64,000 nt of DNA from Micavibrio sp. UBA6145 (GTDB lineage: Bacteria; Pseudomonadota; Alphaproteobacteria; Micavibrionales; UBA1664), in NCBI GenBank assembly GCA_002423205.1, contig DIUZ01000002.1, positions 65,409 to 129,408 on the forward strand, written 5' to 3'. The notes beneath the pieces are model-generated. The model made no database searches. It was not told the DNA's origin and saw nothing but the letters and a program-made list of their open reading frames with translations. A program made the position numbers and the translations under genes. Each line of letters opens with the position of its first letter. The stretch's first letter is position 1. Positions 4,596 to 48,447 of this stretch are shown here, one piece after another.

Positions 4596-5216
4596 TTACT
4601 GAATGAGGCCGCGCAGCTCTTCCTGAAGCTTGGTGATATTGGCCTTCAGGGATTTTACGCGCTCATCACGCGATTGCGGCTTGCTGTCTGCCGTATGACC
4701 GGCAGGGGCGGCACCGCCCTTGGCGTCTCCAGCCTTGAACGGGGAAAACATGCCGATGGTCTGCGAGAACATCTCCATGTTTTTACGGTTCAGTTCCTCG
4801 AACGCGCCTGCGCCCGGGATCATGTTCATGCCCGGCATCATGCCGGTAAACGACTTGGACATGGAACTGCGCAGGGTTTCCTGGTGGGTAACGAAATTGG
4901 CCAGCGCCTGTTCCAGGTAGTTGGGGACCAGACCCTGCATGCCGTCGCCGTAAAACTTGATCAGCTGGCGCAGGAAGTTGGGCGGCAGCATGGACTGGCC
5001 GCGGGATTCCTGTTCAACGATGATCTGGGTCAGGACCTGCTGCGTCAGGTCTTCCGCCGTCTTGGCGTCCTGAACGACGAATTCCTGGCCTTCCTTGATC
5101 ATCTCGCACAGATCGTCGAGCGTCACATACGACGAACGGCCGGTGTCGTACAAACGGCGGTTGGCGTATTTCTTGACGATAATGACATCGTCCTTTTTCT
5201 TACGCGGGCGTACCAT
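4596..5216 (-). CDS. phaR: PHA synthesis repressor PhaR
   Basis: From the ATG at 5216 the translation reads MVRPRKKKDDVIIVKKYANRRLYDTGRSSYVTLDDLCEMIKEG..., the typical PhaR N-terminus. The longer tracked ORF (to 5831) runs antisense into the neighbouring gene. Confidence 0.9.
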   Translation of the reverse strand: MVRPRKKKDDVIIVKKYANRRLYDTGRSSYVTLDDLCEMIKEGQEFVVQDAKTAEDLTQQVLTQIIVEQESRGQSMLPPNFLRQLIKFYGDGMQGLVPNYLEQALANFVTHQETLRSSMSKSFTGMMPGMNMIPGAGAFEELNRKNMEMFSQTIGMFSPFKAGDAKGGAAPAGHTADSKPQSRDERVKSLKANITKLQEELRGLIQ

Positions 5217-5264
5217 GACGTGAAACTCCTTGATGATATTGTAGTCGGATATAATTAATATATA

Positions 5265-5349
5265 TGCACAAAAGCAATGAAACGAAAAGCCCCACCACGC
5301 GCAGCAAAAATTTCTGAGTCCTTGCAAGGGGTTAGGGAAAACGCAGCAA
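5265..5349. promoter_or_regulatory. Divergent phaR / phaC-like promoter region with TGC/GCA-rich repeats (candidate PhaR operators)
   Basis: An A/T-rich core (GGATATAATTAATATATA) lies in this region. TGCACAAAAGCA is at 5265-5276. The direct repeat CGCAGCAA occurs at 5300-5307 and 5342-5349, 42 bp apart. Confidence 0.3.
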
Positions 5350-6470
5350 TGCGCCATACCGCGTATCGCGACGGGCCCAAGCCCTTTAACCTGCATCTCT
5401 TCACCACCGCCTGCCTTTTGTCGGCTGCCGCCTGGCCCGTGGCCAGCGACCCCGATAAGCGCGATGACGTAACCCGGGTCGTGGCCGATATGACAGCCGA
5501 CATGATGCGTGGTCTGGATGCTTACCGCGCGTCGTCTTTCCGGGCAGACAAGCCGCAGCATAAATCCGTATGGTCCAGGGGCAGCACCCGTCTGCTCCAT
5601 GCCGGAGACGGCGAGGGGGTACAGGTGCTGGTCGTGCCGTCCCTGGTCAACCGCTATGACATCCTTGATCTGGACGCACGGCATTCCTTCGTGGCCTATC
5701 TGAAGGGGCAGGGGTTCGATCCCTATATTCTCGACTGGGGTGCCCCCGGTCCGGCTGAAAAAACATTCACCGTCGATGACTACATCACCACGCGCCTCTA
5801 CCCCGCGCTGGGTCAGCTTACCAATCCGCATGTCATCGGTTATTGTATGGGCGGGACCATGGCGGCGGGGGCTGTTGCTGCCTTACCGGATCAGTCGAAT
5901 GTCCGTTCCCTGACCCTTCTGGCCGCACCGTGGGATTTCCATGCGGGCGATCCCAACATGCCCTTGCGCATGAGCAGCTACGCCGTATCCGCCAGCGGCG
6001 TGATGGAAGCCACCGGCACCCTGCCGGTCGACTGGATACAGGCCCTGTTCGCCTCCATCGACCCGCTTTTTGCCTTCAACAAATTCCGTGCCTTTGCGGA
6101 TATGGATCAGGCATCCGAAAAGGCACGCCGTTTTGTCATCGTCGAAGACTGGCTGAATGACGGCGTCGACCTGACCGCGCCCGCGGCGGCGCAGGCATTG
6201 AATCAGTGGTATGTCGGGAATGAGCCGCATAACGGCGTATGGACCATCGGCAAAAGCCTGGTCGTGGCGTCAAACATCACCGTGCCGGCATTCGTGGTTG
6301 CGGCCGGAAATGACAAGCTGGTCCCTGCGCCCTCTGCGCTCGCCATCGCGCAGCAAATTGCCGTCTCAGAAAGCATAAGCCCCGACATCGGACATATCGG
6401 CATGATGGCATCCGACCGAGCCATGACGGCCGTATGGCAACCGGTCGCGGCGTGGCTTAAAAACAAATAA
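5349..6470 (+). CDS. Short PHA synthase-like alpha/beta hydrolase (PhaC-like, GxCxG box)
   Basis: The translation has an alpha/beta-hydrolase layout with a lipase-box variant GYCMGG (Cys nucleophile, as in PHA synthases). It sits in a phaR / phaA / phaB context. I prefer the start at 5349 because GGGAAA lies 8 nt upstream. The alternative ATG at 5277 has no Shine-Dalgarno (SD) sequence. Confidence 0.65.
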   Translation: MRHTAYRDGPKPFNLHLFTTACLLSAAAWPVASDPDKRDDVTRVVADMTADMMRGLDAYRASSFRADKPQHKSVWSRGSTRLLHAGDGEGVQVLVVPSLVNRYDILDLDARHSFVAYLKGQGFDPYILDWGAPGPAEKTFTVDDYITTRLYPALGQLTNPHVIGYCMGGTMAAGAVAALPDQSNVRSLTLLAAPWDFHAGDPNMPLRMSSYAVSASGVMEATGTLPVDWIQALFASIDPLFAFNKFRAFADMDQASEKARRFVIVEDWLNDGVDLTAPAAAQALNQWYVGNEPHNGVWTIGKSLVVASNITVPAFVVAAGNDKLVPAPSALAIAQQIAVSESISPDIGHIGMMASDRAMTAVWQPVAAWLKNK

Positions 6471-21871: not shown

Positions 21872-22552
21872 TCATTTTGCGGTATAGGGCTGGCTGGGGC
21901 AGATCGGCGCGGGTCCCTGGCGCAGTTCGTTCTTCCACTCATACAAGGTCACACGCCACGGCATGGGATCATGCGCAGGCTCCGGAATGAAATGGTGCAG
22001 GGTGGCGTTCGGCGTAAACAGATTGCGGTCGAGCACGTCATGCATGACCTGAAACGAATGAAATACGCCGCCATGGGTGACGAACAGCACCCGTTCGCTG
22101 GTGTGCGCGTTTAAATGACGGGTCATGGCCGCGCGGATACGCGCGCTGAACTGGCGTCTGCTTTCGCCGCCCCGGGGCACGGCATCCGGATCGCCGCGCA
22201 AATGCGGGAAGACCTTGTCCCATGGTTGTTGTTCCCATTCGCCCATCATGTGCTCGCGCAGTTCGTTGTCGCCAAGAACGGGTAATTTCAGCGCTGCGTT
22301 CATGATCGCCGTGGTTTCCCGCGTGCGGTTCATGTCGGAATGGATGATCAGGGACGGGCGGCTGTCAGCCGGCATCGCGTCCAGAACCTGCGCCGCAATA
22401 TGCGCCTGCCGGCGGCCTTCGTCGTTTAATACGGTATCAACCCCGCCGCCACAGGTCAGGCGACGCGCGTTCATCACGGTCTCGCCGTGCCTGATCATGA
22501 AGAACGGTGTTGCGGGAAGGATAGGGTCAGGTTTTGATGATGGGGATGCCAT
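21872..22552 (-). CDS. Histidine phosphatase family protein (phosphoglycerate-mutase-like)
   Basis: FFMIRHGETVMN (RHG motif) appears early and ...VTHGGV appears late. The tracked start is a TTG at 22561; the first ATG is at 22552. Either start overlaps the 3' end of the PIN gene. Confidence 0.8.
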   Translation of the reverse strand: MASPSSKPDPILPATPFFMIRHGETVMNARRLTCGGGVDTVLNDEGRRQAHIAAQVLDAMPADSRPSLIIHSDMNRTRETTAIMNAALKLPVLGDNELREHMMGEWEQQPWDKVFPHLRGDPDAVPRGGESRRQFSARIRAAMTRHLNAHTSERVLFVTHGGVFHSFQVMHDVLDRNLFTPNATLHHFIPEPAHDPMPWRVTLYEWKNELRQGPAPICPSQPYTAK

Positions 22553-22907
22553 AGGCGTCAAAATAGGGGGTGGATGTGATGATTGTAAGCCCGTTTATAG
22601 CCGCCTGAGCCAATAAAAGCCGGTCATACGGGTCGGTATGGTGGTAAGGCAGGCGCAGGGTCTTCCACGTGACCTCCGGCGTCAGGTCCAGCACTTCAAG
22701 ACCTGATTTTGCCACCATTTCAGGCAAATTATCGGGTGTCTTGGCCTTTTTCATGGCCTTTTTGACCGCAATTTCAAAGAAACTGGCCGCCGATACCATG
22801 ATTCTGGCGTCATTATCGGCAAAAACGGCCTTTGTGGGGTCATTTAAGCTATCAAAATCGCTCAAAAACCGTAAAAGTACCGATGTATCCAGCAAATATC
22901 CGGTCAT
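22527..22907 (-). CDS. vapC: PIN-domain toxin (VapC-like)
   Basis: 126 aa, beginning MTGYLLDTSVLL with the acidic residues typical of PIN. It overlaps the upstream antitoxin gene by 4 nt. Confidence 0.85.
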   Translation of the reverse strand: MTGYLLDTSVLLRFLSDFDSLNDPTKAVFADNDARIMVSAASFFEIAVKKAMKKAKTPDNLPEMVAKSGLEVLDLTPEVTWKTLRLPYHHTDPYDRLLLAQAAINGLTIITSTPYFDAYGIPIIKT

Positions 22908-23128
22908 TTCTTGATCCCGAATGCGCTGCCATCAGGCGTATCGAAATCATCCGACATCCAGATTTCGCCCTTCAGAAGATTGCCCTTACGCTTTTTGGAT
23001 CGCCCCGCCGGGGTGATCCGCGCCACCGGCGTCCCGGCCCGGCACAGCAACACTTCGCCGCCGTCCTCCTCAAGCCCGGCAACAAGCTTTGACAGATTGG
23101 TCTTGGCGGCATGAATATTGACTTTCAT
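22904..23128 (-). CDS. Type II antitoxin (Phd/YefM-like N-terminus)
   Basis: 74 aa: MKVNIHAAKTNLSKLV...EVLLCRAGTPVARI. It has ATGA coupling to the PIN gene. Confidence 0.8.
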   Translation of the reverse strand: MKVNIHAAKTNLSKLVAGLEEDGGEVLLCRAGTPVARITPAGRSKKRKGNLLKGEIWMSDDFDTPDGSAFGIKK

Positions 23129-23974: not shown

Positions 23975-26218
23975 ATGGCCAAGAAAAACGACACCATCCG
24001 CGACAACCCCGGCAACATCGTTGAGCAGGCGCTGACGGAAATCCTGTCCCAGCGTTACCTCGCCTACGCCATGTCGACCATCACGTCCCGTTCGCTGCCC
24101 GATGTGCGCGACGGTCTCAAACCCGTCCACCGCCGCTTGCTCTACGCGATGCAGCAGTTGAATCTCAAGGCGCATCTCGGCCCCAAAAAATCCGCCCGCG
24201 TCGTCGGTGACGTCATCGGTAAATACCACCCGCACGGTGACCAGTCGGTTTACGACGCGCTGGTGCGCCTGGCGCAGGACTTCGCCGTCCGTTATCCGCT
24301 GGTCGATGGCCAGGGCAATTTCGGCAATATCGACGGCGATAACGCCGCCGCCATGCGATACACCGAAGCACGCCTGACGGTCGTGGCCGAGCTTCTGATG
24401 GACGGTCTCGACGACGACGCCGTTGATTTCCGCCCGACCTATGATGGTGAACAATCCGAACCCATCGTCATGCCCGCCGGTTTCCCGAACCTTCTGGCCA
24501 ACGGATCATCCGGCATTGCTGTCGGCATGGCCACCAACATCCCCCCGCACAACGTCGCCGAACTATGCGAGGCAATGGAAGCCATGATCGACGGCGATCC
24601 GTCGATCGCCGATATCATCAAAATGGTGCCGGGCCCCGACTTCCCGACGGGCGGTACGCTGGTCGAAGACCGCGCCACCATTATCGATGCCTATACCAAG
24701 GGCCGCGGGTCCTTCCGCCTGCGTGCGAAATGGGAAACCGAAGAACTTAAAGGCGGCGCATGGCAGATTGTCGTGACGCAGATGCCGTATCAGGTGCAAA
24801 AGGCCAAGCTGGTCGAAGATATTGCCAACCTGATCACCAATAAAAAAATCTCCACGCTGGATGACGTTCGCGATGAATCCGCCGAAGACGTGCGCCTCGT
24901 GCTGGTGCCGAAATCGCGCAACATCGAAGCCGCGCTTTTGATGGAACAACTGTTCCGTTCATCCGATCTTGAAATCCGCTTCGGCCTGAACATGAACGTT
25001 CTGGAAGGCGGTCGCACGCCGCGCGTCCTGAACATCAAGGAAGCCCTGCAGTCATTCCTGAACCACCGTCAGGAAGTGCTGGTTCGCCGCTCGAAAAACC
25101 GCCTTGGCATCGTCGAAAACCGCATCGAAATTCTTGCGGGTTACCTGATCACCTATCTGAACCTGGATAAGGTCATCAAAATTATCCGCACCGAAGACGA
25201 ACCCAAACCTGTGCTGATGAAGGCGTTCAAGCTGACCGAAGTGCAGGCCGACGCCATCCTCAACATGCGCCTGCGTTCTTTGCGCAAGCTTGAGGAAATG
25301 GAACTCAAGACCGAGAACACCAAGCTTCTGGAAGAAAAATCCGAACTCGAAGCCCTGCTGGGCAGCGAACGCCGCCAGTGGACCGTCATCAAGAAACAGA
25401 TTCAGGCGCTGGGCAAACAATTCAGCAAAGACACGGCCCTCGGCGCACGCCGCACCAAGATGGGCAAACCGTCCCAGATCCAGATCGTCAGCGAAGAACA
25501 GTTCATCGAAAAAGAACCAGTCACGCTGGTCTGCTCGACCCAGGGCTGGATCCGCGCCATGAAGGGCCATGATCTGAACCCCAACGATTTCAAGCACAAG
25601 GAAGGCGACGAAAACCGTTTCGTCATCCCGTGCCAGACCACCGACAAGATCGTCATCTTTGCATCCAACGGCCGTTCCTACACGCTGGGTGCGGACAAAC
25701 TGCCCTCGGGCCGCGGTTTTGGTGAACCCGTGCGCCTGATGATCGATATGCCCGCGCATGACGACATCATTTCCATCTATATCTATAACGAAAAAGACCG
25801 TTACCTGATTGCCGGCGACGATGGGCGTGGCTTTGTCGTCAAGGCACCGGACACGATGGCCCAAACCAAAAACGGCAAGATCATCCTCAACGTGGACGAG
25901 GGGCATTCCGCCGTCGTCACATGGAAGATCAAACCGACGGACGATCATGTTGCTGTTGTGGGTTCAAACCGTAAATTGCTGGTCTTCCCGCTGGCCGACG
26001 TGCCCGAAATGGGCCGCGGCAAGGGCGTCGCATTGCAGAAATACAATGGCGGCAAACTCTCGGATGCCATCACCTTCAACATGAAGGAAGGCATGCCCTT
26101 CACCGAAGGCCGCAGCACGGCCCGCACGCACAACATGAAGCTGTGGTCCGCCGCACGGGCAAGCCAGGGTAAAACCCCGCCCGAAGGCTTCCGTTCGGAC
26201 AATAAATTTAAAGTGTAA
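23975..26218 (+). CDS. parC: DNA topoisomerase IV subunit A
   Basis: The translation shows [24 protein letters not shown] and [10 protein letters not shown]. It is 747 aa and has no GyrA box that I can see, which favours ParC. Confidence 0.9.
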
Positions 26219-27061
26219 TCAAATCTGGCGCGGGGCCGGATAGGCCTTCGTCCGGTCGACGCGTAACAGGCGAAACTGCGCCTTGTTCTCAATGCGCGTC
26301 CATTGCCCGTCTATCAGGCAATCCATCGGCAAAAACTTGTCTTTCCAGCTATAGGCCGACGGCTTGCGCGTGATCGACGCCATGTACAGGTGCTCGAAAC
26401 CCCGTTCCTGCAAATGCTCGATGATCTTCATGATCAGCGTAATGCCCGGTGTTTTTGCGCGTGCCGCGGGTTCGTAAAAGAACGCGGTCGCATAGGCAAA
26501 ATCCTGCGCGGTGTGGAAAATGGCACTGGCCAGCAATTTTCCATGTTCGCCGCGCATATCCATATGCTGGGCGTTCATGCCGGGCATGCGTTCAAAATCC
26601 AGCAGGAAACTGGATGCTTCGTGATCCGTATGTGGCGTATCCGGCAGATCGGGAAAACGGAATTTCATGTACTTGCGGTACAGAGTCGCATGTTCGTAAG
26701 GAATGTCCGTTTCATAAGGGCCGCTGATACCCTCATGCACACTGAAAGAAAGACCCGCATTGCGCGTGAATACGCGCCGTAAATCCGTGTTCGGACGAAA
26801 ACCCTGCACATCCACACGCATCGGTACGCACACATTGCAGTGACATTGCATATGAATGAAACTGCCCGGCACGGGCGTTGCACCTTTAAGCAGTTGTTGT
26901 TTTGCAAATGCCGCATCCGCCGTGACTTCGCCTGGCAAGGGCGGCGCATCCTGACGATGGAGCGGTTCAAGAATAAGGAACAGCATCACCATCGGCTTAT
27001 CCACGGCCGCGATGTTGCAGTGTGGAATGACAGCGCGGTGTATCGATGTTGTGGATCTCAT
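26219..27061 (-). CDS. Bpt/ATE-like putative aminoacyl-tRNA-protein transferase paralogue B
   Basis: 280 aa. It has a Cys cluster (CHCNVCVPMRV), RRVFTRNA, YATAFFYEPAARAKTPG and FEHLYM...PSAYSWKDKFLPMDCLIDGQW. The ATG overlaps the stop of paralogue A (ATGA at 27058-27061). Confidence 0.6.
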   Translation of the reverse strand: MRSTTSIHRAVIPHCNIAAVDKPMVMLFLILEPLHRQDAPPLPGEVTADAAFAKQQLLKGATPVPGSFIHMQCHCNVCVPMRVDVQGFRPNTDLRRVFTRNAGLSFSVHEGISGPYETDIPYEHATLYRKYMKFRFPDLPDTPHTDHEASSFLLDFERMPGMNAQHMDMRGEHGKLLASAIFHTAQDFAYATAFFYEPAARAKTPGITLIMKIIEHLQERGFEHLYMASITRKPSAYSWKDKFLPMDCLIDGQWTRIENKAQFRLLRVDRTKAYPAPRQI

Positions 27062-27918
27062 GAAATCCTTTGGCCGTGCGGCGCGGGATAGCCCTTCGTC
27101 GGATCGACACGCAAGCCACGGAAATCACCTTTGCCGTTAAAACGCTGCCATTTACCGTCGATCAGAAGATCCATCGGGGTCAGCTGGTCCTTCCAGCTAT
27201 AGGCAGACGGCACACGGCTGACGACGCCCAGATACTGATGTTCGAAAGCCTGTTCGCGTAAATGTGCGATGACATGCAGGGTCAGCGCCATGCCGATACT
27301 GTTCTGGCGCAGCGCCGGGTCATAAAAAAATGCTGTCGCATATGATGATTTTTCAGTGACATGAAAGACATTGCAGCCGCGCAAAACCCCTTTTTCATCG
27401 CGCAGATTGAGATGCATGGCATCCATGCCGGGGAATGCACCAAGGTTTTTTAAAGCTGTCTTGGCTTCAGTTATATTGCGCGGTGTGTCGTTCCCGCCTG
27501 GAAAACGCGCCTGCATATGGTTCATATACAATTGCGCATGTTCGGTATCATGCATTTTGACAAAAGGGGGAACGCCTTTGTGTATGGTTACATCAAGATG
27601 TGCATTGCGGGCCATGACGCGGCGATGTTCAGACGCAAAATGAAAATCCTGAATCACCACACGCATCGGCACGCATATGCTGCACGGGCATGCCAGCCGC
27701 GTGAAGCTGCCGGGGCTGGGCCATGCGCCGTCTTTCATGCGCTGCACGGCATACTCCGGCGTAACATCAAGAACCGCGCGGTGCGTGAGTGTCGGCGACG
27801 CGAATGATACGGCATCAAACTGCGTGCTCAGCAGGGTGTATTCACGCGTTTCCCTCTGGTCCTCGGCGATGGAACAGCTCTTGGGTTTGCTGAGATGGAA
27901 TTCGGCACGCACACGCAT
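27058..27918 (-). CDS. Bpt/ATE-like putative aminoacyl-tRNA-protein transferase paralogue A
   Basis: 286 aa. It has CPCSICVPMRV, RRVMARNA, YATAFFYDPALRQNSIG and FEHQYLG...PSAYSWKDQLTPMDLLIDGKW. The start is uncertain because there is no obvious SD. Confidence 0.6.
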   Translation of the reverse strand: MRVRAEFHLSKPKSCSIAEDQRETREYTLLSTQFDAVSFASPTLTHRAVLDVTPEYAVQRMKDGAWPSPGSFTRLACPCSICVPMRVVIQDFHFASEHRRVMARNAHLDVTIHKGVPPFVKMHDTEHAQLYMNHMQARFPGGNDTPRNITEAKTALKNLGAFPGMDAMHLNLRDEKGVLRGCNVFHVTEKSSYATAFFYDPALRQNSIGMALTLHVIAHLREQAFEHQYLGVVSRVPSAYSWKDQLTPMDLLIDGKWQRFNGKGDFRGLRVDPTKGYPAPHGQRIS

Positions 27919-27957: not shown

Positions 27958-29445
27958 TTAGAACTGCAGCTCTTTACCCTTTGCCGGGGCCGGGATGGGC
28001 GCAACCGGCGCGGGAGCCGCAGGAATAGGCGCTGCCTGCGGGGTTGGTACCGGTGCCGGGGCTACGGGGGCGGGGCGGCGGATAGGGGGGGCCTGCGCCG
28101 GGACGTCATCGCCAAAGGTAATGGTCTTCTGCGCCGGGGTGGTCGCCGGGGTCACTGATTTTTGTTCTGACCGTGCCTCGCTCTCCAGTTTGAACACCGG
28201 TGTCGTGATGCGCGGCGGTTTGTTCTGGATCGGCGCGATGACCGGACCTTCATACAGCGGCGCGTTGGGCGCAGCCGGCGTTGAATCGAACTGTAGCACT
28301 TGCGGCTGGCGGGGGAAATTATCCGTCGACGGTGTTACCGGCAGCGGCGTATTTTTCTGCGGCTGCACGTATTCCACACGCGGGGCCTGCTGACCCGGTT
28401 TGGCCGTGCCCGGTTGCGGCGTCGGCGGCCCCTGGATGGTATCGTCGACGATAATCACGGGCGGATTGGTTTTGGCATCTGCTGCCTTTTTCGCTTCGGA
28501 TGCGGCGGCATTTTGTGCCTTCATTTTCTCCAGCGTTTCTTTCGACGGCTTTTCGCGCATCAGGATAATGCTGATGCGGCGGTTGCGTGCGGATGCCGGA
28601 TCTTTCTCCAGCGGTTCGCGGTCGGACCGGCCCATGACGTTTTCAATACGTCCTTCGGGCAGGCCGCTGGCGATGATCACGCGGCGTGATGCCTGCGCGC
28701 GGTCGGCGGACAGGTTCCAGTTATCATAGGTGTTGGGCACGCGGTATTTGGCTGAATCGGTATGACCACGCACCGATACCTGGTTGGGCAGGGCGGTAAT
28801 GACGCCCGATATCTTGGTCAGGATCTTGGCCATGAAATCATACATGACCGCGGAACCTGAGGGGAACATCGACCGGCCCTTGTCATCCACGATCTGGATG
28901 CGCAGGCCTTCCGGCGTAATGTCGATCAGGATGTTGTTCTGCAGATCTTTAAGCTCGGGCGACTTGGCGATCTCGGCCTTGAGCTGTTCGGCGGCGGCTT
29001 CAAAGCGTTTGTTTTCTTTCTCGCGCAGTTCTTCTTCAAGTTTTGCGATCTCGGCGGCTTCGGCCTGTTCTTCAGGTGTCGTATCACCCGACAATTTGCC
29101 GTGCGTGCTCACGGTCTGTTCCGGTGTCTGGACCAGCGGCTGCACATCGCTGGACATGGCACCAACGGGGCTCATGGTCATACCGCCCATGATCCCGCCC
29201 GCGCCGGACTCGGACGAGGACACTTTGGGGTGGGTCGGGTCGAAGTAATTGGAAATCGCGTTTTTCTGTTCCTTGGTCGTGACGTTGAGCAGCCACAGCA
29301 AAAGGAAGAACGCCATCATGGCCGTCACGAAGTCGGCATACGCGACTTTCCACGCGCCGCCATGGTGGCCGCCGCCGCCCTTCTTGATCCGTTTGATAAC
29401 GATCGGGGCTAGTTTTTCTTTTTCGTCTTTTTGCGGCCCCGCCAT
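27958..29445 (-). CDS. motB: Flagellar motor stator protein MotB with long Pro-rich C-terminal extension
   Basis: The N-terminus reads ...GGGHHGGAWKVAYADFVTAMMAFFLLLWLL. An OmpA-like domain follows (VRGHTDS...NWNLSADRA...NRRISIILM). A P/A/T/Q-rich tail of ~200 aa ends the protein. Confidence 0.9.
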   Translation of the reverse strand: MAGPQKDEKEKLAPIVIKRIKKGGGGHHGGAWKVAYADFVTAMMAFFLLLWLLNVTTKEQKNAISNYFDPTHPKVSSSESGAGGIMGGMTMSPVGAMSSDVQPLVQTPEQTVSTHGKLSGDTTPEEQAEAAEIAKLEEELREKENKRFEAAAEQLKAEIAKSPELKDLQNNILIDITPEGLRIQIVDDKGRSMFPSGSAVMYDFMAKILTKISGVITALPNQVSVRGHTDSAKYRVPNTYDNWNLSADRAQASRRVIIASGLPEGRIENVMGRSDREPLEKDPASARNRRISIILMREKPSKETLEKMKAQNAAASEAKKAADAKTNPPVIIVDDTIQGPPTPQPGTAKPGQQAPRVEYVQPQKNTPLPVTPSTDNFPRQPQVLQFDSTPAAPNAPLYEGPVIAPIQNKPPRITTPVFKLESEARSEQKSVTPATTPAQKTITFGDDVPAQAPPIRRPAPVAPAPVPTPQAAPIPAAPAPVAPIPAPAKGKELQF

Positions 29446-29456
29446 CTGGTCCCGCC

Positions 29457-30338
29457 TTATGCTGTCGCGGTGGCTTTGTTGGTGGCTTCTTCAACCTCAA
29501 GGAAGGTCGGCTGCACTTCGTGGTGCAGGGTTTTGCGCGCGAATTCGACCGCAACCTGCGGGGCGCAGCCCTGCAGCAGGGCAAGGATCGCAACCTTCAT
29601 GCAGACGTAATATTTGATCTCGCTTTCTGCGCGGCTGTTCACGGCACCGGCCAGCGGCGCGACATAGCCGTATGAGAACCAAACGCCCAGGAACGTACCC
29701 ACAAGAGCACCGCCGATCATCTCACCCAGCACTTCCGGCGGTTCGGTGATCGAACCCATGGTTTTAATAACCCCCAGAACCGCGGCGACAATGCCCAGCG
29801 CCGGAATACCGTCGGCCATGGTCTGGATGGCGTGGCCGGGATGACGTTTTTCGGTGGAGATCGTGTCGATCTCCTGGTCCATCAGCGCCTCGATGGTCAG
29901 CGGGTTGTCATTGCCAAGCGAGATGATGCGAAGGTAATCGCACAGGAATGTCTGCGCATGGTGGTTGGACATGAAGGACGGGAATTTCTGGAAGATGTCG
30001 GATTCTTCCGGGTTCTCGATATGCGCTTCCATCGCAAGCCAGCCTTTTTGCTTGGCCGTACGAAACGCGAGATACAGCATACCCAGCAGCTCAAGATAAT
30101 CTTCCTTGGAGTGCGCTTCGGGCTTGGTGATCAGTTTCAGGTAGTGGAGGGATTCCTTGATGACGTGCGGGGAGTTCGCAATCATGAATGCGCAGATGGC
30201 GCAGCCCATGATGGTCAGGCCTTCGCCGGGCAGGGCGTGCAGAATAACATCGGTGATGATGGAGACCTTGCCGCCGGCGAGCAGGAAGCCGCCGAAGGTA
30301 CAGAAAATGACGCCGACAAGGCCGATGATTTTTAACAT
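29457..30338 (-). CDS. motA: Flagellar motor stator protein MotA
   Basis: The translation can be aligned by eye to MotA along its whole length (...IENPEESDIF..., LRIISLG, IEALMDQEID, PALGIVAAVLGV, VGTFLGV, VAVEFARKTL). Confidence 0.93.
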   Translation of the reverse strand: MLKIIGLVGVIFCTFGGFLLAGGKVSIITDVILHALPGEGLTIMGCAICAFMIANSPHVIKESLHYLKLITKPEAHSKEDYLELLGMLYLAFRTAKQKGWLAMEAHIENPEESDIFQKFPSFMSNHHAQTFLCDYLRIISLGNDNPLTIEALMDQEIDTISTEKRHPGHAIQTMADGIPALGIVAAVLGVIKTMGSITEPPEVLGEMIGGALVGTFLGVWFSYGYVAPLAGAVNSRAESEIKYYVCMKVAILALLQGCAPQVAVEFARKTLHHEVQPTFLEVEEATNKATATA

Positions 30339-39752: not shown

Positions 39753-39786
39753 ATTTGTGCAAAATTCCTATAACTATCATTACATC

Positions 39787-41472
39787 ATGCGCATCAAATC
39801 CCTTGTCCTTACCGCCCTGTCACTCGCCCTGTTTTCGACGGGCGCAAGCGCCGCGTCATTGCGCGATATCGAAACCCGCGGCACGCTCACCAGCGCCCAG
39901 AACGGCCAGATCGACGGTAACATCTGGTCCGGCCTGTCACGCGCCGAGGCCCTGCTGCTGATCCGGTCGCTGCCGGATAAATATGCATCGCCCATTTATT
40001 ACGAACTGGCCCGCCGCCTGCTTCTGTCTGATGCGCCCGCGCTTGGTGCCGACAAAAACGGGAAAACCCCTGTCGATGACAAGGGTAACCCGGTTGCGGT
40101 AAATCCGAATGCGCCCGATGTGCTGATCGCGCGTCTTGATAAACTTCTGGCCATGGGCGCGATCCGCGATGCGGAGACATTGTATGCCGCCGTCGTTCCC
40201 GAAAACGTCGATGATTTTGACCTGGTGCTGCGCAACCAGCAGATACTGATGCTGCGCGGTCAATTGTCCGCCGCATGTCTCGATCTTCAGGCCGTGCAGA
40301 AACAACACTCCGGCAACGCCAAGTGGCAGGAACTCAACCGCCTGTGCCGCGTGCAGTTCATGGCCGGGGGGGCTGAACGCGACCGCCTGCTGAGCGAAAA
40401 GAAATTCGTCGAATTCCCGCAACTGGGTAATTACCTGCGCGGGCGAGGGGCGGGCGGTTACCGTTCCTTAAGCGTGGAAGACATGGCCTTTGCCGTGGCC
40501 ACCAAACAGATCAACGAAGGCACGCTGCGCTACCTGACATCGCAGGCCGGCAATCTGCCGCCGCTGCTGCTTTCGGTGCTGTACAATATGGATACCGGTC
40601 TGGATGTGCCGGAAAAGACCTGTCTTGCGATTGAATCCGCACGTCGCGGCATCATCACCACGCGCGACCTGATCACGCTGTATGAAAAGCCGCACTATGA
40701 CTCGGCGCTGCTGCTCCAGAATCTGGGTACCAATCCGTCTGGTGCTATCCATCCCTGCATGGTCCCGACCGTGATGTACCAGCGCATTGCCTCCAACAAG
40801 GATCTGCCCGCCCGCGACCAGACCATCCGCTCCGCCCTCGATATTATGGGCGACCTGCCGGACGCGGCGTTCTGGCCGATGTCCGTGTATTTTGAGGATT
40901 TCGACATTCATGCCAGCGCGAATAAACCCTATCTCTGGCGTCTGACCCGCATCACCGCCTATGAAAAAGACGAACTGCCCTCGGCCTGGCGCGACTGGGA
41001 TGACCAGAACGGCCTTCCGGGTATTTCGCCCTTCTGGCCCGTTCAGGCGATCATGTCCCCCAGCGGCAACGAAGCGCAGGAAATGGACCTCTGGAAAACC
41101 CAGTGGCCGGACCAGGCGAACCGAATCTTGGGCAGGGACCCGGCATTGCCCCTGTTGCTGGGATTGGCTTTAAGCCCCAAAGACGGCAAAACATCGAAAA
41201 ACCTTAAGACTAACTTGTATGATTATGAAAATATTTTACCGTTGACATTTTCCAGAAGTTATTCTATGCCTTCCTTTGGATTGACGCAGCGCTTGTCCAA
41301 TGTTATTAAAAATAATCAGACGGGTCAGTCCGTCGCGCTGCTACTGATCGGATACGGAGCCATCCCGCCAGATCAGGTCATTCCAACCCAGGTGGCATTG
41401 GTAATCGATGGGTTAAATCGTGCCGGTTTGGGACGCTATTCAAGGCGTTTCGGGCTGGAAGTCCTGCGTTAA
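39787..41472 (+). CDS. Secreted/periplasmic protein of unknown function
   Basis: A signal peptide MRIKSLVLTALSLALFSTGASAAS starts at the ATG at 39787. The protein is 561 aa and I recognise no domain. Confidence 0.65.
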   Translation: MRIKSLVLTALSLALFSTGASAASLRDIETRGTLTSAQNGQIDGNIWSGLSRAEALLLIRSLPDKYASPIYYELARRLLLSDAPALGADKNGKTPVDDKGNPVAVNPNAPDVLIARLDKLLAMGAIRDAETLYAAVVPENVDDFDLVLRNQQILMLRGQLSAACLDLQAVQKQHSGNAKWQELNRLCRVQFMAGGAERDRLLSEKKFVEFPQLGNYLRGRGAGGYRSLSVEDMAFAVATKQINEGTLRYLTSQAGNLPPLLLSVLYNMDTGLDVPEKTCLAIESARRGIITTRDLITLYEKPHYDSALLLQNLGTNPSGAIHPCMVPTVMYQRIASNKDLPARDQTIRSALDIMGDLPDAAFWPMSVYFEDFDIHASANKPYLWRLTRITAYEKDELPSAWRDWDDQNGLPGISPFWPVQAIMSPSGNEAQEMDLWKTQWPDQANRILGRDPALPLLLGLALSPKDGKTSKNLKTNLYDYENILPLTFSRSYSMPSFGLTQRLSNVIKNNQTGQSVALLLIGYGAIPPDQVIPTQVALVIDGLNRAGLGRYSRRFGLEVLR

Positions 41473-44373: not shown

Positions 44374-47300
44374 ATGGGCAAAACAAAGCCAGCCGGACAA
44401 AGCCGGGACAAAACCGTTACTGCCATCAAGGCCGCCATCATGGCAACCCCGGATGAGGGGGAGTCCGCGCCAATCGTTTTTCCCGACATCAAAACCCGGG
44501 GCGAAGATGCCTTTACGGCTGTAACCGATTTTGTCGAAAGCCTGATCGAAGCACAGCAGCCGCTGCATATATCGGCGACGTGGAAAGAGGCGGGCCTGCG
44601 CGGCCACGGCCACCTGATCCAGATCGCATCCCGCCACGCGATGGAGGCGGCACGCGCAGCCTATGACCGCGCGGTATCTAAGTCCGGTTTCACAGCAACG
44701 CCCGAAACGCTGGACCAGCACCCGGCCTTGGATTTTGAGGCTGCTATGGAGTGGCTGTTCAAAACCAATGCCCGCCTTTTCTCCGACCGTACCTATGCGC
44801 ATCTCGGCGGTTCATCCGAAGCGTTTTACGGCGCGATTCAAAAATCTTATGCAGACCTTGCATGCCAGAGCGCCAAGGTGGCGCAATCCATGCTGGACGC
44901 GGATGAAGACGACCCGCGCGCGCTTCGCATCATCGAACGCATATGGTCGGTGTGCTTTGACCGTCTGGGTATCCAGACGCTCGACGATCATCTGGCGGAG
45001 GCACTGGGTTTTACAGCGGGTTATCTTGATACGTTGGAATACCGTGCCACACGCGGAAAACTGCGCACCAGTCTACGTGAGGCATCAAAACTGCGCTGGT
45101 CTGACCGCAACGGGCGCAGTTACGGCGAGGCAATCATAGACGCATGGGCTACCATGCAGAACGATGAAAGCGTTCTGGAAGATACCTCCACCTTTGCCGG
45201 TACCAATTTCACGCCCGAAACGTTCGAGCATGAATTTGAACGCATGCTGGATGTGCTGATTACCAAAGACCTGCAGGCGCTGGAAAACCATGAGATGGAT
45301 GTGAGTGAGCTTTATGCCCTCATGGAAAATCTGGAACGCTGGCGTGATATGTTTGGCGAGGTTGAAGAACCCGAAGACATTGACCCCGACCATGCGGGGG
45401 AGGATTTCTGGCGTTTCCATGTACTCCAGAAATTCGGCTATGGCAGTTACACCCATATGATGGAATGCCTGAACAGTTCCTATGCCAGCCTTCAGGCCAA
45501 TATGGTCTTAGATACGCGCGCGCAGGGTAATCCGGACGATGTTTATGACTCGCTTATGGAGGTACGCGATTACCTGCAAAAGGGTAATATCGCCTTCGAC
45601 CGTCCCGGCGCGTTCGCGGCGATCATGCTGGACCGCGACGCCTATTTCGCCGCGCTGACTGAAACTGCGCCTGCCGCCATCGACCGTGATTTCAATTACA
45701 CCTATCAGCCCGCCCTGAAAACGGAGCAGCGTTTGCAGATTCTTCTCAACGCTGACGACGCCTTTGACCGCATCGACGGCACGCCGGCAATGGCCCGGAC
45801 GTCCGCGTCGCCGCGCAGCCTTGCCGCGCAGCTGGAAAAGACGCGCATGCGCCGGGCTGAGGAAATATTGGCCATGTCCCGCATCGCCTATACCGGCGAG
45901 GGACTGTATCTGGTCATGAAGCCGGCGCTGGAGCTGCTGGATGATCTGGGACTGACCCTGCTGTCGGATGAATTCCATACCCGCACCGGCATGGACGAAA
46001 AACGTGCTGCATCGCTGGCAAGACTGTTTGATGATGCAGATATCAGCACGCTTTGGAAAACTGCCACCAGCGACGACGAAGACCCGCTGCAACGTCTGGT
46101 CTATGCCATGGAATTCGAAAACCGGTTTGAGAAACTGGATGCAACACGTCAGGTGGCGTTGCTGCACACTCTCGACGGCAGCGAACAGCAGCATCGCATG
46201 CACCTGTCACAGATTGCTGATCTTGCCATGAATACGGCGGTGGAACGCATGGCGCTGGCCCCGCAGGACACGCTCAAAAATGCTGAGTTTTTGTTAGTGA
46301 TCCGCAACGGCCTGAACCTTATGAATCCGAACGCGTTGGACCATCCGCTGGTATTCAAGCGCCTGACGGGCAAGGATCTGGCGGAATTCCTGAGTGTCGA
46401 GCAGGATACAAAATCACGCGTGGAACAGTTGGTCGACGCCGACCGCAACCCGTTTGTCATCACGAAGGAACAGGCCGCCGAGCGTCTGGTAAAAATCACT
46501 CGCATGAAACCATCGGCCGAGGGCTGGTGCGCACTGCGTGATCTGCGCCATGACGCCATCATCACCGGCTTCAGCCTGGCCGATAACGACATACTGAATG
46601 CCGCCCGTATCAATTACAGCAATCTGGCCGATCTGAATGCGCAGCACGCGCTGGCCGGCGCGCAGGAATGCCTGGATGCCGCACTGGCCAAGGGGCCGGG
46701 CATGGTGTCCCTGAAGAATCTGGATGCCCACCAGTATCATGATTTCGTAATGGCCCGCCGCTGGCTGGGCCGAAGCGGCTTCGCGCTGTTGCAGGACGAC
46801 GCATACGAAGCCATGGGTCTTGCCGGTCGCGCAGACTTCGTCGAGCGCATGCGAGAAAGCCTGTTCGATTACGCGATGCAGATTGAATCTGCAATTTTCC
46901 GTGAAGGGATCACCCTTGTCGGGCCGTTCCAGTATCTGAAGGCCATGCGCGAAATGCGCGACGCTTATCAGGCGCTGGGCTTTGACAATGAGCGCGATGA
47001 CGGCGCCGAATTGCCACCGGATATGACCTCCAACGCGGTCAGCGTGACAACGGTCCGCAGGGCGCTCTCCAGTTTTGCGCCGCGCGCACACCTGGCCATC
47101 CTTAACAGTGACCGCCCGTCAAGCGTCAAACACCGCCAGATGCGTGAAATCATGCAATTTTCTGCGCGTATGGGTATCGGTTTTCCCAACAATGACACTA
47201 CACAGGCGATCAACCAGAAACTCACCGATACCGTCTATGGCCGCCTGAAGCATGTACTGGATGTCTTTGCCAAAAAGCCGGACGACATGGCGCGCGGCTG

Positions 47301-48447
47301 GCGTATCGCCCATGCCATTGGCCTGGTCCGGGACGAATACAATCTTGAGCGCCTGTCATGGTTTGACCAGATGTTTGAACCGCTTGGATACCGTACCTTC
47401 CGTGATTTCTGCGAGGACATGGCCGTCAAACGCCTGGATCAACTGCATCACCGTTGCCAGCGCCGGATCACCACCGCCGATGTGGACCAGGTGTCCAGCG
47501 GTGCCTTCCATCGCGACATTATCGCCAACATCGCCCGCATGCGTTCCGTCATTGAATCGCCGTTTCTGGACGACGCATACGTCAATCTGATCATGAATAA
47601 TGCCGGCGTCAGCAGAGAGTGGATGAATGCAACCGAACGCCTGTCCGCGTCACTGGCGTTGCCGATGATGGCCGACATCGTTTTTGACCCGACCCTGCAG
47701 CCCGAAAACCGTGCCATGCATATTGATGATGTTTTTACCCTGCGTAACCTGGTCGGATCCGAAGACCGCATCATCAAGCGCATGGATTGGGATGAACTGA
47801 ACGAAGTACGCTCCGAGATGCTGTTAATGCGCGCATCTCACCATATACTGCGTGACATGATGCGTGGAGACAGGCCGTCATGGTCGCCCCGCATGCTGCA
47901 GGTTTATGCCCTGCTGGAACAGAACGGCCTGACACTGTCAGATACGGCGCATTTGCAGGCGATGGGCCTGAGTGAGGGGGAGGCTGCACAGTATGCATCC
48001 CTCGACCGTCTGGCATTTGCCTACACTATGCTTTTGCATCTGGACAAGATCGACCCGAAACAGATCGGCACCACGCACAACATCGTGGTGGGCATGTTCC
48101 GCGACGCGGACCGCAACGGCATCGATTTCAAGGACCGCAACGTGCAATACATGCTGGGCCTGCGTTCAGATAATGAAATGCATCAGCTGATTATCGCGCC
48201 CGCACTGTTTGTCGCACGTAGTTTTTCGGCCACGCTGAAAGACACGCAGGATCCGGTACAGGGCCGCACCCTCGGAAAAGCCATGCAAAATTTCATGAAA
48301 GCCACGCGCCTTGAAGCCCATGTGGATCAGGGTGTATTGAAAGAATTCGGCATCTTTGACCGTGCTTCTCTGGGGCGTCTGATCGGCGACTTCGGCAGGG
48401 CGTTGAAGACAAAGCGCCGCAAGGACAACGCTCTGCAACCGGCTTAA
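44374..48447 (+). CDS. Very large (1357 aa) acidic helical protein of unknown function
   Basis: One uninterrupted ORF with composition like the surrounding genome. I see no signal peptide, TM segment, P-loop or metal motif. A G-hydrophobic motif recurs through the protein (see findings). Confidence 0.75.
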   Translation: MGKTKPAGQSRDKTVTAIKAAIMATPDEGESAPIVFPDIKTRGEDAFTAVTDFVESLIEAQQPLHISATWKEAGLRGHGHLIQIASRHAMEAARAAYDRAVSKSGFTATPETLDQHPALDFEAAMEWLFKTNARLFSDRTYAHLGGSSEAFYGAIQKSYADLACQSAKVAQSMLDADEDDPRALRIIERIWSVCFDRLGIQTLDDHLAEALGFTAGYLDTLEYRATRGKLRTSLREASKLRWSDRNGRSYGEAIIDAWATMQNDESVLEDTSTFAGTNFTPETFEHEFERMLDVLITKDLQALENHEMDVSELYALMENLERWRDMFGEVEEPEDIDPDHAGEDFWRFHVLQKFGYGSYTHMMECLNSSYASLQANMVLDTRAQGNPDDVYDSLMEVRDYLQKGNIAFDRPGAFAAIMLDRDAYFAALTETAPAAIDRDFNYTYQPALKTEQRLQILLNADDAFDRIDGTPAMARTSASPRSLAAQLEKTRMRRAEEILAMSRIAYTGEGLYLVMKPALELLDDLGLTLLSDEFHTRTGMDEKRAASLARLFDDADISTLWKTATSDDEDPLQRLVYAMEFENRFEKLDATRQVALLHTLDGSEQQHRMHLSQIADLAMNTAVERMALAPQDTLKNAEFLLVIRNGLNLMNPNALDHPLVFKRLTGKDLAEFLSVEQDTKSRVEQLVDADRNPFVITKEQAAERLVKITRMKPSAEGWCALRDLRHDAIITGFSLADNDILNAARINYSNLADLNAQHALAGAQECLDAALAKGPGMVSLKNLDAHQYHDFVMARRWLGRSGFALLQDDAYEAMGLAGRADFVERMRESLFDYAMQIESAIFREGITLVGPFQYLKAMREMRDAYQALGFDNERDDGAELPPDMTSNAVSVTTVRRALSSFAPRAHLAILNSDRPSSVKHRQMREIMQFSARMGIGFPNNDTTQAINQKLTDTVYGRLKHVLDVFAKKPDDMARGWRIAHAIGLVRDEYNLERLSWFDQMFEPLGYRTFRDFCEDMAVKRLDQLHHRCQRRITTADVDQVSSGAFHRDIIANIARMRSVIESPFLDDAYVNLIMNNAGVSREWMNATERLSASLALPMMADIVFDPTLQPENRAMHIDDVFTLRNLVGSEDRIIKRMDWDELNEVRSEMLLMRASHHILRDMMRGDRPSWSPRMLQVYALLEQNGLTLSDTAHLQAMGLSEGEAAQYASLDRLAFAYTMLLHLDKIDPKQIGTTHNIVVGMFRDADRNGIDFKDRNVQYMLGLRSDNEMHQLIIAPALFVARSFSATLKDTQDPVQGRTLGKAMQNFMKATRLEAHVDQGVLKEFGIFDRASLGRLIGDFGRALKTKRRKDNALQPA

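Follow-up and report, generated by a model that had tools for sequence, protein, structure and literature searches.

Enzymes of the Bpt/ATE1 family add an amino acid taken from a charged tRNA to the ends of proteins, and to our knowledge the only N-termini that experiments have shown them to read are acidic ones (or oxidised Cys). Bacterial Bpt (V. vulnificus; NCBIfam models NF002341–NF002347) combines ATE_N and ATE_C in a single polypeptide and carries an N-terminal Cys with a Cys triplet, a C..P.R motif, an RR..RN helix, a GNAT core and a ..K motif. The yeast enzyme klAte1 has a C4 zinc site, and mutagenesis has shown that its residues R80, Y25 and Y87 are needed to read the acidic N-terminal residue (PMC9351520). 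H178 and Y303 of klAte1 are implicated in binding the 3' end of the tRNA, and the Y303F variant is inactive (PMC9351520). The GNAT-type aminoacyl-tRNA transferase fold is shared with the Aat L/F-transferase, FemX, MprF/aaPGS and Sba18-type enzymes, and a mechanism involving a conserved Lys is common to the tRNA-dependent transferases of this fold (PMC9351520).

The locus described here lies in a 64-kb window, the whole stretch of DNA that was analysed, and contains two overlapping genes on the minus strand. Gene A (27058–27918) encodes a 286-aa long-form Bpt/ATE-like transferase and gene B (26219–27061) a 280-aa paralogue that also belongs to the long-form subfamily. Both assignments draw on the open reading frame, Pfam ATE_C, AF2 models, Foldseek and dN/dS, and for B also on its identity to A, which reaches 47% over 226 aa (BLASTP, E 1e-76), far beyond chance. 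The ATG of B (27059–27061) overlaps the TGA of A (27058–27060) in the tetranucleotide ATGA (27058–27061), and a Shine–Dalgarno sequence, AAGGA, is located at 27066–27070, 4 nt upstream of the ATG. The complete junction, read from the sequence, occupies 27058–27070 on the minus strand, and the 4-nt overlap is identical in four further loci (L042, L037, L040 and L036). A and B are probably co-transcribed and translationally coupled. A preliminary description of the locus had reported these two ORFs, their homology, a series of shared motifs and an overlap that would permit translational coupling of paralogous genes. The ORFs are present as it gave them, all of the listed motifs are visible in our alignments, and the overlap together with the Shine–Dalgarno sequence of B would allow the coupling.

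A and B appear to share the architecture of Bpt and have its motifs listed above, but are just 20–30% identical to it. Their best scores with the NCBIfam arginyltransferase models NF002341–NF002347 are 80–88 bits, against cutoffs of 170–358, whereas the canonical bpt beside parC in locus L020, which served as a positional control, scores 367.7 bits against a cutoff of 267. By this measure A and B are not canonical Bpt. In the long form, CPY is replaced by Cx(I/L/V), GFRRSG by GxxPxxxG, RH by RF, a conserved Asp by His and SYK by SWK, and A/B differ from Bpt further in an N-terminal insertion of ~18 aa, a C-terminal extension of ~24 aa and their tandem duplication. The positions conserved within the subfamily are largely kept (40/45 in A and 35/45 in B), and all of the fully conserved ones are present in both proteins.

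Pfam ATE_C matches A with 39.7 bits and B with 43.9 bits (cutoff 25), while ATE_N gives 12.8 and 18.1 bits, below its cutoff of 27, and covers only the last ~27 model positions. A combined 50-sequence profile reaches the ATE1 chains of the PDB at E 4e-30; with a narrower 4-sequence profile, the sole match among PDB sequences was a spurious OTU hit (E 0.64). Neither protein matches Pfam Leu_Phe_trans or FemAB, even at E-values up to 10. The preliminary assignment of A and B to diverged ATE/Bpt aminoacyl-tRNA-protein transferases is upheld by ATE_C scores above the cutoff and by ATE1 as the best structural match. Its statement that the first ~60–70 aa are unrelated to the N-terminus of canonical Bpt has to be revised, since hhalign aligns the profile of A with canonical Bpt from residue 4 to residue 262 (probability 100%, E 2.7e-47), N-terminal Cys included, and Cys15 of both A and B falls on the Cys of the CPYL motif of canonical Bpt. 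As judged from these alignments, A/B are homologous to ATE_N in their N-terminal region, which retains the metal-binding Cys, and they are longer than canonical Bpt because of the ~18-residue insertion, not because of an unrelated domain. Between A and B themselves, the first ~60 aa show just 10/51 identities.

The AF2 models (A, pLDDT 92 and pTM 0.90; B, pLDDT 92.6 and pTM 0.91) show the ATE1 fold for both proteins. All top Foldseek matches of the two models in the PDB are ATE1 structures (human, yeast, K. lactis), with alignments that run over ~290–340 columns. The best match of A is human ATE1 (8tzv_A; E 1.5e-12, TMq 0.64); B matches the same chain with E 2.9e-13 and KlAte1 (7wfx_A) with TMq 0.70. 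A-PGS/L-PGS/MprF and L/F-transferase follow ATE1 in the ranking. Eukaryotic ATE1 (klAte1 7WFX/7WG1, scATE1 7TIF/8E3S, human ATE1 8TZV; TMq 0.64–0.70) is thus the best structural match and has the C4 site and the catalytic Lys in common with A/B, but A/B are about half as large, have neither its large insertions nor its C-terminal domain, and lack the Arg-binding Glu277 as well as the acceptor residues R80, Y25 and Y87. The Aat, FemX, MprF/aaPGS and Sba18-type enzymes are distant (TMq 0.35–0.45) and have neither an ATE_N domain nor a C4 site.

The catalytic core is retained. We mapped and verified the residue numbering against klAte1; all features of A and B given below are on the minus strand. 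Four Cys columns are invariant in 50–55 sequences and correspond, in the alignment, to the C4 zinc site in klAte1. In A they correspond to C15 (27874–27876) and to C77, C79 and C82 of the motif CPCSIC (27673–27690), in B to C15 (27017–27019) and to C73, C75 and C78 of CHCNVC (26828–26845); the spacing in both is CxCxxC, not CxxCxxC. The alignments show that a predicted four-Cys metal site (Zn or Fe–S) is retained in A and B, as are the Arg of the C..P.R motif, the putative basic tRNA helix RR..RN and the predicted catalytic Lys. This Lys is part of an SWK motif, located at 27190–27198 in A (K243, equivalent to klAte1 K304) and at 26342–26350 in B (K240), and its column (klAte1 K304 / FemX K305) is invariant in all groups. 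Across 50 sequences of the subfamily and canonical Bpt, the residues C15, C77, C79, C82, R86, G209, K243 and W257 (A numbering) are invariant.

The predicted acceptor pocket, by comparison with klAte1, is remodelled. The canonical motif GFRRSG is replaced by GAWPSPG in A (27709–27729; R80 to W66, R81 to P67) and by GATPVPG in B (26864–26884; R80 to T62, R81 to P63). We tabulated these positions by group, for 19 long-form and 97 canonical-type sequences. Tyr at the position of klAte1 Y25 occurs in 0/19 long-form but 83/97 canonical-type sequences, with I17 in both A and B, and Tyr at Y87 in 0/19 versus 68/97, with T73 in A and I69 in B. Arg at R80 is likewise confined to the canonical type (68/97 versus 0/19), and R81, an Arg in 70/97 canonical-type sequences, has become Pro in the long form.

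The preliminary description had suggested an altered substrate, which is plausible given that the residues reading the usual acidic target are replaced. Because they are lost, A/B probably modify something else. In the reading that we favour, with a probability of roughly 0.55, A and B are functional, coupled paralogues within a long-form branch of Bpt/ATE1 that evolves fast, and are aminoacyl-tRNA transferases with a changed acceptor specificity. Aminoacyl-tRNA would still supply both with the aminoacyl group, but the amine to which they attach it is probably not an N-terminal Asp or Glu any longer. The reading of the pocket is carried over from klAte1, a yeast enzyme just ~11–15% identical to A/B, and the function proposed here is to be understood as an analogy with it. 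With the catalytic machinery kept and the readers of the acidic side chain all replaced, and with its fast evolution and repeated duplication, the long form would be a natural test case for the encoding of acceptor specificity in this fold, and it could reveal a new bacterial signal for N-terminal aminoacylation.

Substitutions also affect the positions implicated in tRNA binding. His at klAte1 H178, found in 79/97 canonical-type sequences, is Phe in A (F139), in B (F136) and in 13/15 of the long-form members besides the four A/B sequences, and Y303, the Tyr of the YK motif, is Trp in A (W242) and B (W239). These changes could impair rather than retune the use of tRNA, since Y303F inactivates klAte1. 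Asp at klAte1 D247 (83/97 canonical-type) is His in A and B and in 12/15 other long-form members; a role for D247 was not found in the literature.

At the donor-pocket positions klAte1 S255/S273/E277/Y289, the alignment gives A/L/V/Q for A and A/L/I/L for B; V. vulnificus Bpt has A/A/Q/L (PMC9351520). As there is no acidic residue in the predicted pocket of A/B, the donor is probably hydrophobic and Leu-like rather than Arg, and Arg is made an unlikely donor by the loss of the Arg-binding E277, whose place is taken by V216 (A) and I213 (B).

Alternatively, A and B might be ordinary Bpt, transferring Leu onto N-terminal Asp/Glu for ClpS/ClpAP, with a divergence that stems from the rapid evolution of a predator's reduced genome and with other residues reading the acidic side chain. 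We consider this unlikely. The catalytic Lys, the C4 site and, as far as the alignment tells, the hydrophobic donor pocket are kept as in V. vulnificus Bpt, the position on the parC side is that of canonical bpt elsewhere in Alphaproteobacteria, and the 64-kb window contains no other bpt. R80 is also missing from some canonical-type sequences; about 30% of those sampled have no Arg there, so that the family as a whole does not strictly require it. An ordinary Bpt would be harder to reconcile with the joint replacement of three acceptor-pocket residues throughout the subfamily, accompanied by a conserved Pro at R81, and with scores far under the equivalog cutoffs that the positional control in L020 passes. 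Were it correct, the finding would reduce to a pair of strongly diverged orthologues.

A further argument against ordinary Bpt comes from rates of change. Canonical Bpt follows the divergence of ParC closely in other Alphaproteobacteria, where ParC identities of 92% and 76% are accompanied by Bpt identities of 87% and 70–77%, respectively. In Micavibrio-like loci, the long form is merely 34–45% identical at ParC identities of 84–87%. Measured against ParC in this way, the long form evolves several times faster than canonical Bpt. Both copies are nevertheless under purifying selection, with dN/dS of 0.16 for A and 0.15 for B relative to their orthologues in a second strain (L042). It is hardly credible that one or both genes are decaying relics without an enzymatic role: evolution several-fold faster than that of the neighbours, and the substitution of H178, Y303 and R80, which klAte1 needs for activity, would be in keeping with decay, but dN/dS is 0.15–0.16 in both genes, every strain seen has intact ORFs, the structures are modelled with very high confidence, and the substitutions are themselves conserved in the subfamily (P67, F139, H186, W242). 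We also considered a role in a defence system on account of the fast evolution, and dropped it because A, B and two gene-2 proteins gave no match to the PADLOC anti-phage defence profiles.

We found the long-form subfamily by an exhaustive HMM search. Word-indexed homologue searches with A, B and the family profile yielded little beyond near-identical sequences, a search of genome contigs and of metagenome contigs for related loci with the A/B profile returned nothing, and a literature search yielded nothing on the long-form subfamily or on Micavibrio arginyltransferases. The subfamily is small, and all its finds come from Micavibrio-like genomes, in the slot between motB and parC. This slot contains a long-form gene followed by a second ATE-like gene, gene 2, in four lineages, a single long-form gene in another four, and A+B in the lineage of the window only. 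Like gene 2, B directly follows a long-form gene in the slot, often with an overlap in the case of gene 2, and the gene 2 proteins (L037, L040, L045 and L048) resemble A/B in lacking R80 and in having RF(P) in place of RH. They are, however, only 22–24% identical to A/B, shorter (253–268 aa) and without the C-terminal tail, and unlike A/B they keep the C.Y motif, pass Pfam ATE_N and have ANK in place of SWK. By these differences, B is not an orthologue of gene 2. We also rejected B as a gene-converted gene 2, as it aligns over its full length, from residue 1, to P0008 (45%) and is 22–23% identical to gene 2.

P0008, the closest relative, occupies this slot as a single gene. In an NJ tree, A, B and P0008 form a clade (bootstrap 68%) within the long-form clade (90%), which does not include gene 2 of L037 and L040; inside the smaller clade the order of splits is poorly resolved (A+B 31%, B+P0008 47%). 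An ancient dedicated A/B system was rejected, because A and B are of the same subfamily type, P0008 is single and other relatives pair the long form with gene 2. We infer that the A+B pair arose by a lineage-specific re-duplication: the older partner, gene 2, would have been lost, and the long-form gene then duplicated again into A+B.

The preliminary description had suggested a heteromer; in its obligate form, A and B would make up one catalytic subunit, one regulatory or substrate-binding subunit and 1:1 synthesis enforced by the coupling. The 4-nt ATGA overlap with a good Shine–Dalgarno sequence for B would suit such an arrangement, as would the recurrence in the slot, in at least five lineages, of a second ATE-like gene that is coupled to the first or lies close to it, and the regeneration of a pair after the loss of gene 2. 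The gene 2 proteins, moreover, look less catalytically intact, for example in the Asn at klAte1 Y303 (ANK motif). We nonetheless regard an obligate heteromer as decidedly unlikely. The four lineages with a single long-form gene, including that of P0008, weaken the idea, as they indicate that a partner is dispensable; every invariant residue is kept in both A and B, the two have equal dN/dS, and klAte1 is a monomer in solution (PMC9351520). A and B differ from each other at four pocket positions (W/T, T/I, V/I, Q/L), all unchanged in the L042 orthologues, and this stable difference makes two specificities in fixed proportion likelier than an obligate heteromer.

Under the favoured reading, two transferases with changed acceptor specificity have been kept in hosts that we take to be obligate predators with reduced genomes, which suggests that two such genes are useful. 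Tentatively, and at less than even odds, we propose that this clade turned an ancestral bpt into diversifying transferases for a non-acidic N-terminal or a non-N-degron acceptor and repeatedly kept coupled pairs. If so, A and B would represent two specificities of a previously unknown branch of tRNA-dependent protein modification or of the N-degron pathway, which may serve predation or be connected with the flagellar stator operon.

The flagellar stator genes are immediate neighbours. On the same strand, motB (27958–29445; Pfam MotB_plug/OmpA) is directly upstream of A at a distance of 39 nt, preceded by motA (29457–30338; Pfam MotA_N/MotA_ExbB), and the order motA–motB–X is constant in every related locus seen. 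The gap between motB and A has no promoter- or terminator-like motif, and motA, motB and A/B probably share one operon. On the other side, parC (23975–26218, plus strand; Pfam DNA_topoisoIV) is convergent with B, and the stop codons directly adjoin each other (0 nt apart). In eight other alphaproteobacterial loci, canonical bpt is found downstream of parC and convergent with it, immediately adjacent in L026. Because the slot of A/B on the parC side is so close to that of canonical bpt, A/B probably descend from bpt and were not added to it. Within the 64-kb window, neither a canonical bpt nor aat or clpS was found. Genes for an L,D-transpeptidase and an M15 peptidase lie inside the conserved block. 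We looked for a functional tie to motAB and did not retain it: the neighbours of canonical bpt elsewhere in Alphaproteobacteria are unrelated genes (CitMHS transporter, RDD), so that the motB linkage is clade-specific and may reflect shared ancestry only.

The same surroundings bear on whether the acceptor could be something other than a protein N-terminus, such as an amine of the cell envelope or a small molecule, perhaps in connection with the flagellar stator or with the nearby peptidoglycan genes. This proposal, which takes FemX, MprF/aaPGS and the Sba18-type tRNA-dependent synthases as analogues, seems to us quite improbable. It would account for the loss of the residues that read a protein N-terminus, and FemX, aaPGS and Sba18, built on the same GNAT scaffold, are among the structural matches; the genes also always follow motB, whose product binds peptidoglycan, in a block with the L,D-transpeptidase and M15 peptidase genes mentioned above. 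Yet the best matches in structure and sequence are ATE1/Bpt over both domains, including the ATE_N part, which forms the cleft for the protein acceptor, and no membrane segment or signal peptide is evident in the sequences of A or B. The synteny is common to close relatives (ParC 75–87% identical) and may for that reason reflect just common descent.

The C-terminal extension is specific to the subfamily and has no counterpart in canonical Bpt. In A it comprises residues 263–286, KGDFRGLRVDPTKGYPAPHGQRIS (27061–27132, minus strand), and its pattern R..LR....YPAP is conserved within the long form.

Genes A (27058..27918, minus strand, 286 aa) and B (26219..27061, minus strand, 280 aa) form the overlapping pair of ORFs that the preliminary description reported. 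They share an ATGA (27058-27061) in which the TGA stop of A is overlapped by the ATG start of B; an AAGGA precedes this ATG by 4 nt. The two proteins are 47% identical over 226 residues (BLASTP, E 1e-76), and every sequence block listed earlier as common to both is seen in the alignments.

The proposed relationship to the Bpt/ATE family is borne out by profile searches and structure prediction. Pfam ATE_C matches A with 39.7 bits and B with 43.9 bits (gathering score 25); ATE_N matches are weak and partial, and neither protein matches Pfam Leu_Phe_trans or FemAB. AlphaFold2 models based on an alignment of 50-55 sequences are confident (A, pLDDT 92, pTM 0.90; B, pLDDT 92.6, pTM 0.91), with human, yeast and K. 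lactis ATE1 as the top PDB matches (E ~1e-12 to 1e-13, TMq 0.64-0.70), followed by aaPGS/MprF, L/F-transferase and Sba18-type enzymes. Against seven NCBIfam 'arginyltransferase' equivalog models, A and B reach 80-88 bits versus cutoffs of 170-358; a canonical bpt from Maricaulaceae, used as positive control, scored 367.7 bits (cutoff 267). Membership in the ATE/Bpt superfamily is therefore secure, but membership in canonical Bpt is not.

The first 60-70 residues had been described as differing between the copies and as unrelated to the CPYL-type N-terminus of canonical Bpt. The former is correct (10/51 identical), but the latter is not: Cys15 of both A and B falls in the same alignment column as the CPYL Cys, a column that is invariant among 50 sequences, and profile-profile comparison aligns the subfamily with canonical Bpt over A residues 4-262 (probability 100%, E 2.7e-47). 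The same comparison shows an insertion of ~18 residues around A36-53 and a C-terminal tail, A263-286, with no counterpart in canonical Bpt. Judging from these alignments, the N-terminus is a diverged ATE_N domain and not a new one. When 1.84 billion representative proteins were searched exhaustively with an HMM, 666 matched, of which just ~16-22 (273-295 aa) aligned in the tail, the remainder being canonical Bpt of ~240 aa. A literature search found no publication on this long-form subfamily.

In ATE1 from Kluyveromyces lactis (klAte1), a C4 zinc site is formed by C23, C26, C95 and C96, and the pocket for the acidic N-terminal residue by Arg80, which is essential, Tyr25 and Tyr87; S255, S273, E277 and Y289 bind Arg (A, A, Q and L in V. 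vulnificus Bpt), His178 and Tyr303 lie close to the 3' end of the tRNA (H178A is weak, Y303F dead), and Lys304 is catalytic (K304A is dead) (PMC9351520). We aligned a combined profile to the klAte1 chains, checked the numbering against the published residues, and compared 19 long-form with 97 canonical-type sequences, borrowing residue roles from this distant eukaryotic homolog. No group shows any change at the four Cys, the Arg of C..P.R or the Lys. In all 19 long-form sequences, Tyr25 is replaced by I/L/V and Arg81 by Pro; Tyr87 is retained in none (0/19), nor is Arg80 (0/19), which is absent from ~30% of the canonical sample too. Of the 15 long-form members other than A and B, 13 have Phe at His178 and 12 have His at Asp247; A and B themselves have F and H. 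Trp takes the place of Tyr303. The usual residues occupy the compared positions in 68-83 of the 97 canonical-type sequences. At the donor-pocket positions A has A/L/V/Q and B has A/L/I/L; unlike klAte1 with its E277, neither has an acidic residue there. A and B differ from each other at four pocket positions (W/T, T/I, V/I, Q/L), as do their orthologs in a second strain (L042).

Both copies are under purifying selection. Comparison of the window with L042 gives dN/dS values of 0.16 (A) and 0.15 (B), against 0.044 for ParC and 0.067 for MotB. Of 45 positions conserved in the subfamily, A keeps 40 and B 35, and neither has lost a fully conserved one. A and B are two intact, selected proteins of the ATE1 fold that keep the catalytic Lys and the metal-site cysteines. 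Relative to the related locus L034, identity is 87% for ParC and 91% for MotA, but 45% for the long form; relative to L040, it is 84% for ParC and MotA, 70% for RecO, 65% for BolA, 56% for MotB and 34% (A) or 29% (B) for the long form. In other Alphaproteobacteria, canonical Bpt tracks ParC (ParC 92%/Bpt 87%; 76%/70-77%; 96%/95%; 58-65%/50-65%). The subfamily is therefore constrained yet unusually fast-evolving.

Gene order on both sides is conserved in all related contigs: (CobT-CobS)-DnaJ-BolA-MotA-MotB-X(-Y), followed by ParC-RecO in convergent orientation, an antitoxin/PIN pair, a His phosphatase and an M15 peptidase. In 8 other alphaproteobacterial ParC loci, a convergent canonical bpt follows parC (directly adjacent in L026). 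Because A and B sit near that position, the pair is most simply a bpt descendant. In those genomes, bpt is preceded by a gene other than motB. A and B are likely to be co-transcribed with motAB, because the motB-A gap is 39 nt and holds no promoter or terminator motif, although this may be incidental. MotB is unusually long (495 aa; relatives 494-567 aa), carries in its C-terminal ~200 residues (27958-28545) a Pro/Ala/Gln-rich low-complexity tail after the OmpA domain, and diverges fast (56-64% identity where MotA has 84-91%). The stop codons of parC (+) and B (-) abut at 26218/26219 with 0 intergenic bases; a terminator cannot fit between them, and each transcript must therefore end within the opposite gene. 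In L040 and L044, parC and its convergent gene overlap by 4 nt. The small antitoxin (74 aa) and the PIN-domain toxin, together at 22527-23128 (minus strand) between recO and the histidine phosphatase gene, recur at the same place in L040, L044 and L048, a stability unusual for a toxin-antitoxin module.

As to how widely the tandem pair is conserved, A and B occur together only in the window's species and its second strain (L042/L043). Elsewhere the slot between motB and parC holds a long-form gene followed by a different Bpt-like gene of 253-268 aa, gene 2 (L037:6663-7460, L040:6855-7661, with L041, L045:2330-3091, L048:9391-10173), with junctions of a 4-nt overlap, a 1-nt gap or a 20-nt gap; a long-form gene alone (L034/L035, protein P0008; the P0009 contig; L038/L039, P0013; L044, P0015); or one shorter atypical gene (L046/L047, P0033) in the most distant of these lineages (ParC 65% identical). 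On the short L036 contig, a second ORF start overlaps the long-form gene. A and B are 45% identical to P0008, 29-42% to other long forms and just 22-24% to gene 2. In a neighbor-joining tree, bootstrap support is 90% for the long-form clade and 68% for A+B+P0008, with weak support for the branching inside that group; gene 2 lies outside the long-form clade. In the simplest history, an ancestral single bpt would have duplicated into long form and gene 2, gene 2 would then have been lost several times, and a second duplication of the long form in the window's lineage would have restored an overlapping pair.

Gene 2 represents a second uncharacterised Bpt-like family, with Pfam ATE_N and ATE_C both above cutoff. 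The R80-equivalent Arg is missing, RFP replaces RH, and ANK replaces SYK, so no aromatic residue occupies the klAte1 Y303 position; from its sequence, it may be a pseudo-enzyme partner. The L036 ORF (L036:910-1035) overlaps the end of long-form P0010 and begins at the '...P.RIPLAAF..S.SQQRIL..N' motif; neither the N-terminal ~80 residues nor the Cys cluster is present, so it may be a truncated gene 2. The contig ends after 42 codons. P0033 (L046:997-1725), P0028, P0044 and P0027 form a short (242-259 aa) atypical Bpt-like group in which the second Arg and the conserved Asp are kept, while the CPY Tyr and the Arg equivalent to R80 are missing. P0033, the sole gene between motB and parC in its more distant lineage, may represent an intermediate state preceding the long-form/gene-2 split.

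The preliminary observation stands, and its interpretation is partly supported. The locus holds an uncharacterised, remodelled Bpt subfamily and a lineage-specific coupled duplication. The subfamily is clade-restricted, fast-evolving and Bpt-derived, and the residues that, by analogy with klAte1, would read the acceptor are systematically replaced, together with two putative tRNA-end contacts. We infer that A and B would still catalyze aminoacyl-tRNA-dependent transfer, using a hydrophobic donor and an acceptor that is not N-terminal Asp/Glu. Since some lineages have only one gene and A and B each look catalytically complete, the two genes probably represent two specificities and not an obligate complex. 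Within the 64-kb window there is no tRNA gene and, besides A and B, no bpt, aat or clpS; PADLOC gave no defence-protein match for A, B or two gene-2 proteins.

Three large plus-strand ORFs in the window (8-2605, 865 aa; 39757-41472, 571 aa; 44374-48447, 1357 aa) match nothing in Pfam at E <= 1e-5; very large genes also lie nearby in L040 (with PATR repeats) and L048 (1645 aa, no family on record). A PhaR-like ORF (4596-5831, minus strand, 411 aa), whose Pfam match is confined to residues 218-320, overlaps an opposite-strand alpha/beta-hydrolase ORF (5277-6470, plus strand), and its true start is probably much further downstream; the genes around it (thiolase, SDR reductase) make up a PHB-type cluster. 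The window's ParC shares 89% identity with the ParC of an uncultured Micavibrio MAG and 52-61% with those of other Alphaproteobacteria, and the window therefore comes from a Micavibrio-like bacterium. NCBI taxonomy places the genus Micavibrio (taxid 213485) under Bdellovibrionota; the ParC identities and the CobS/CobT-DnaJ-BolA synteny, which is shared with Alphaproteobacteria, fit an alphaproteobacterial affiliation.
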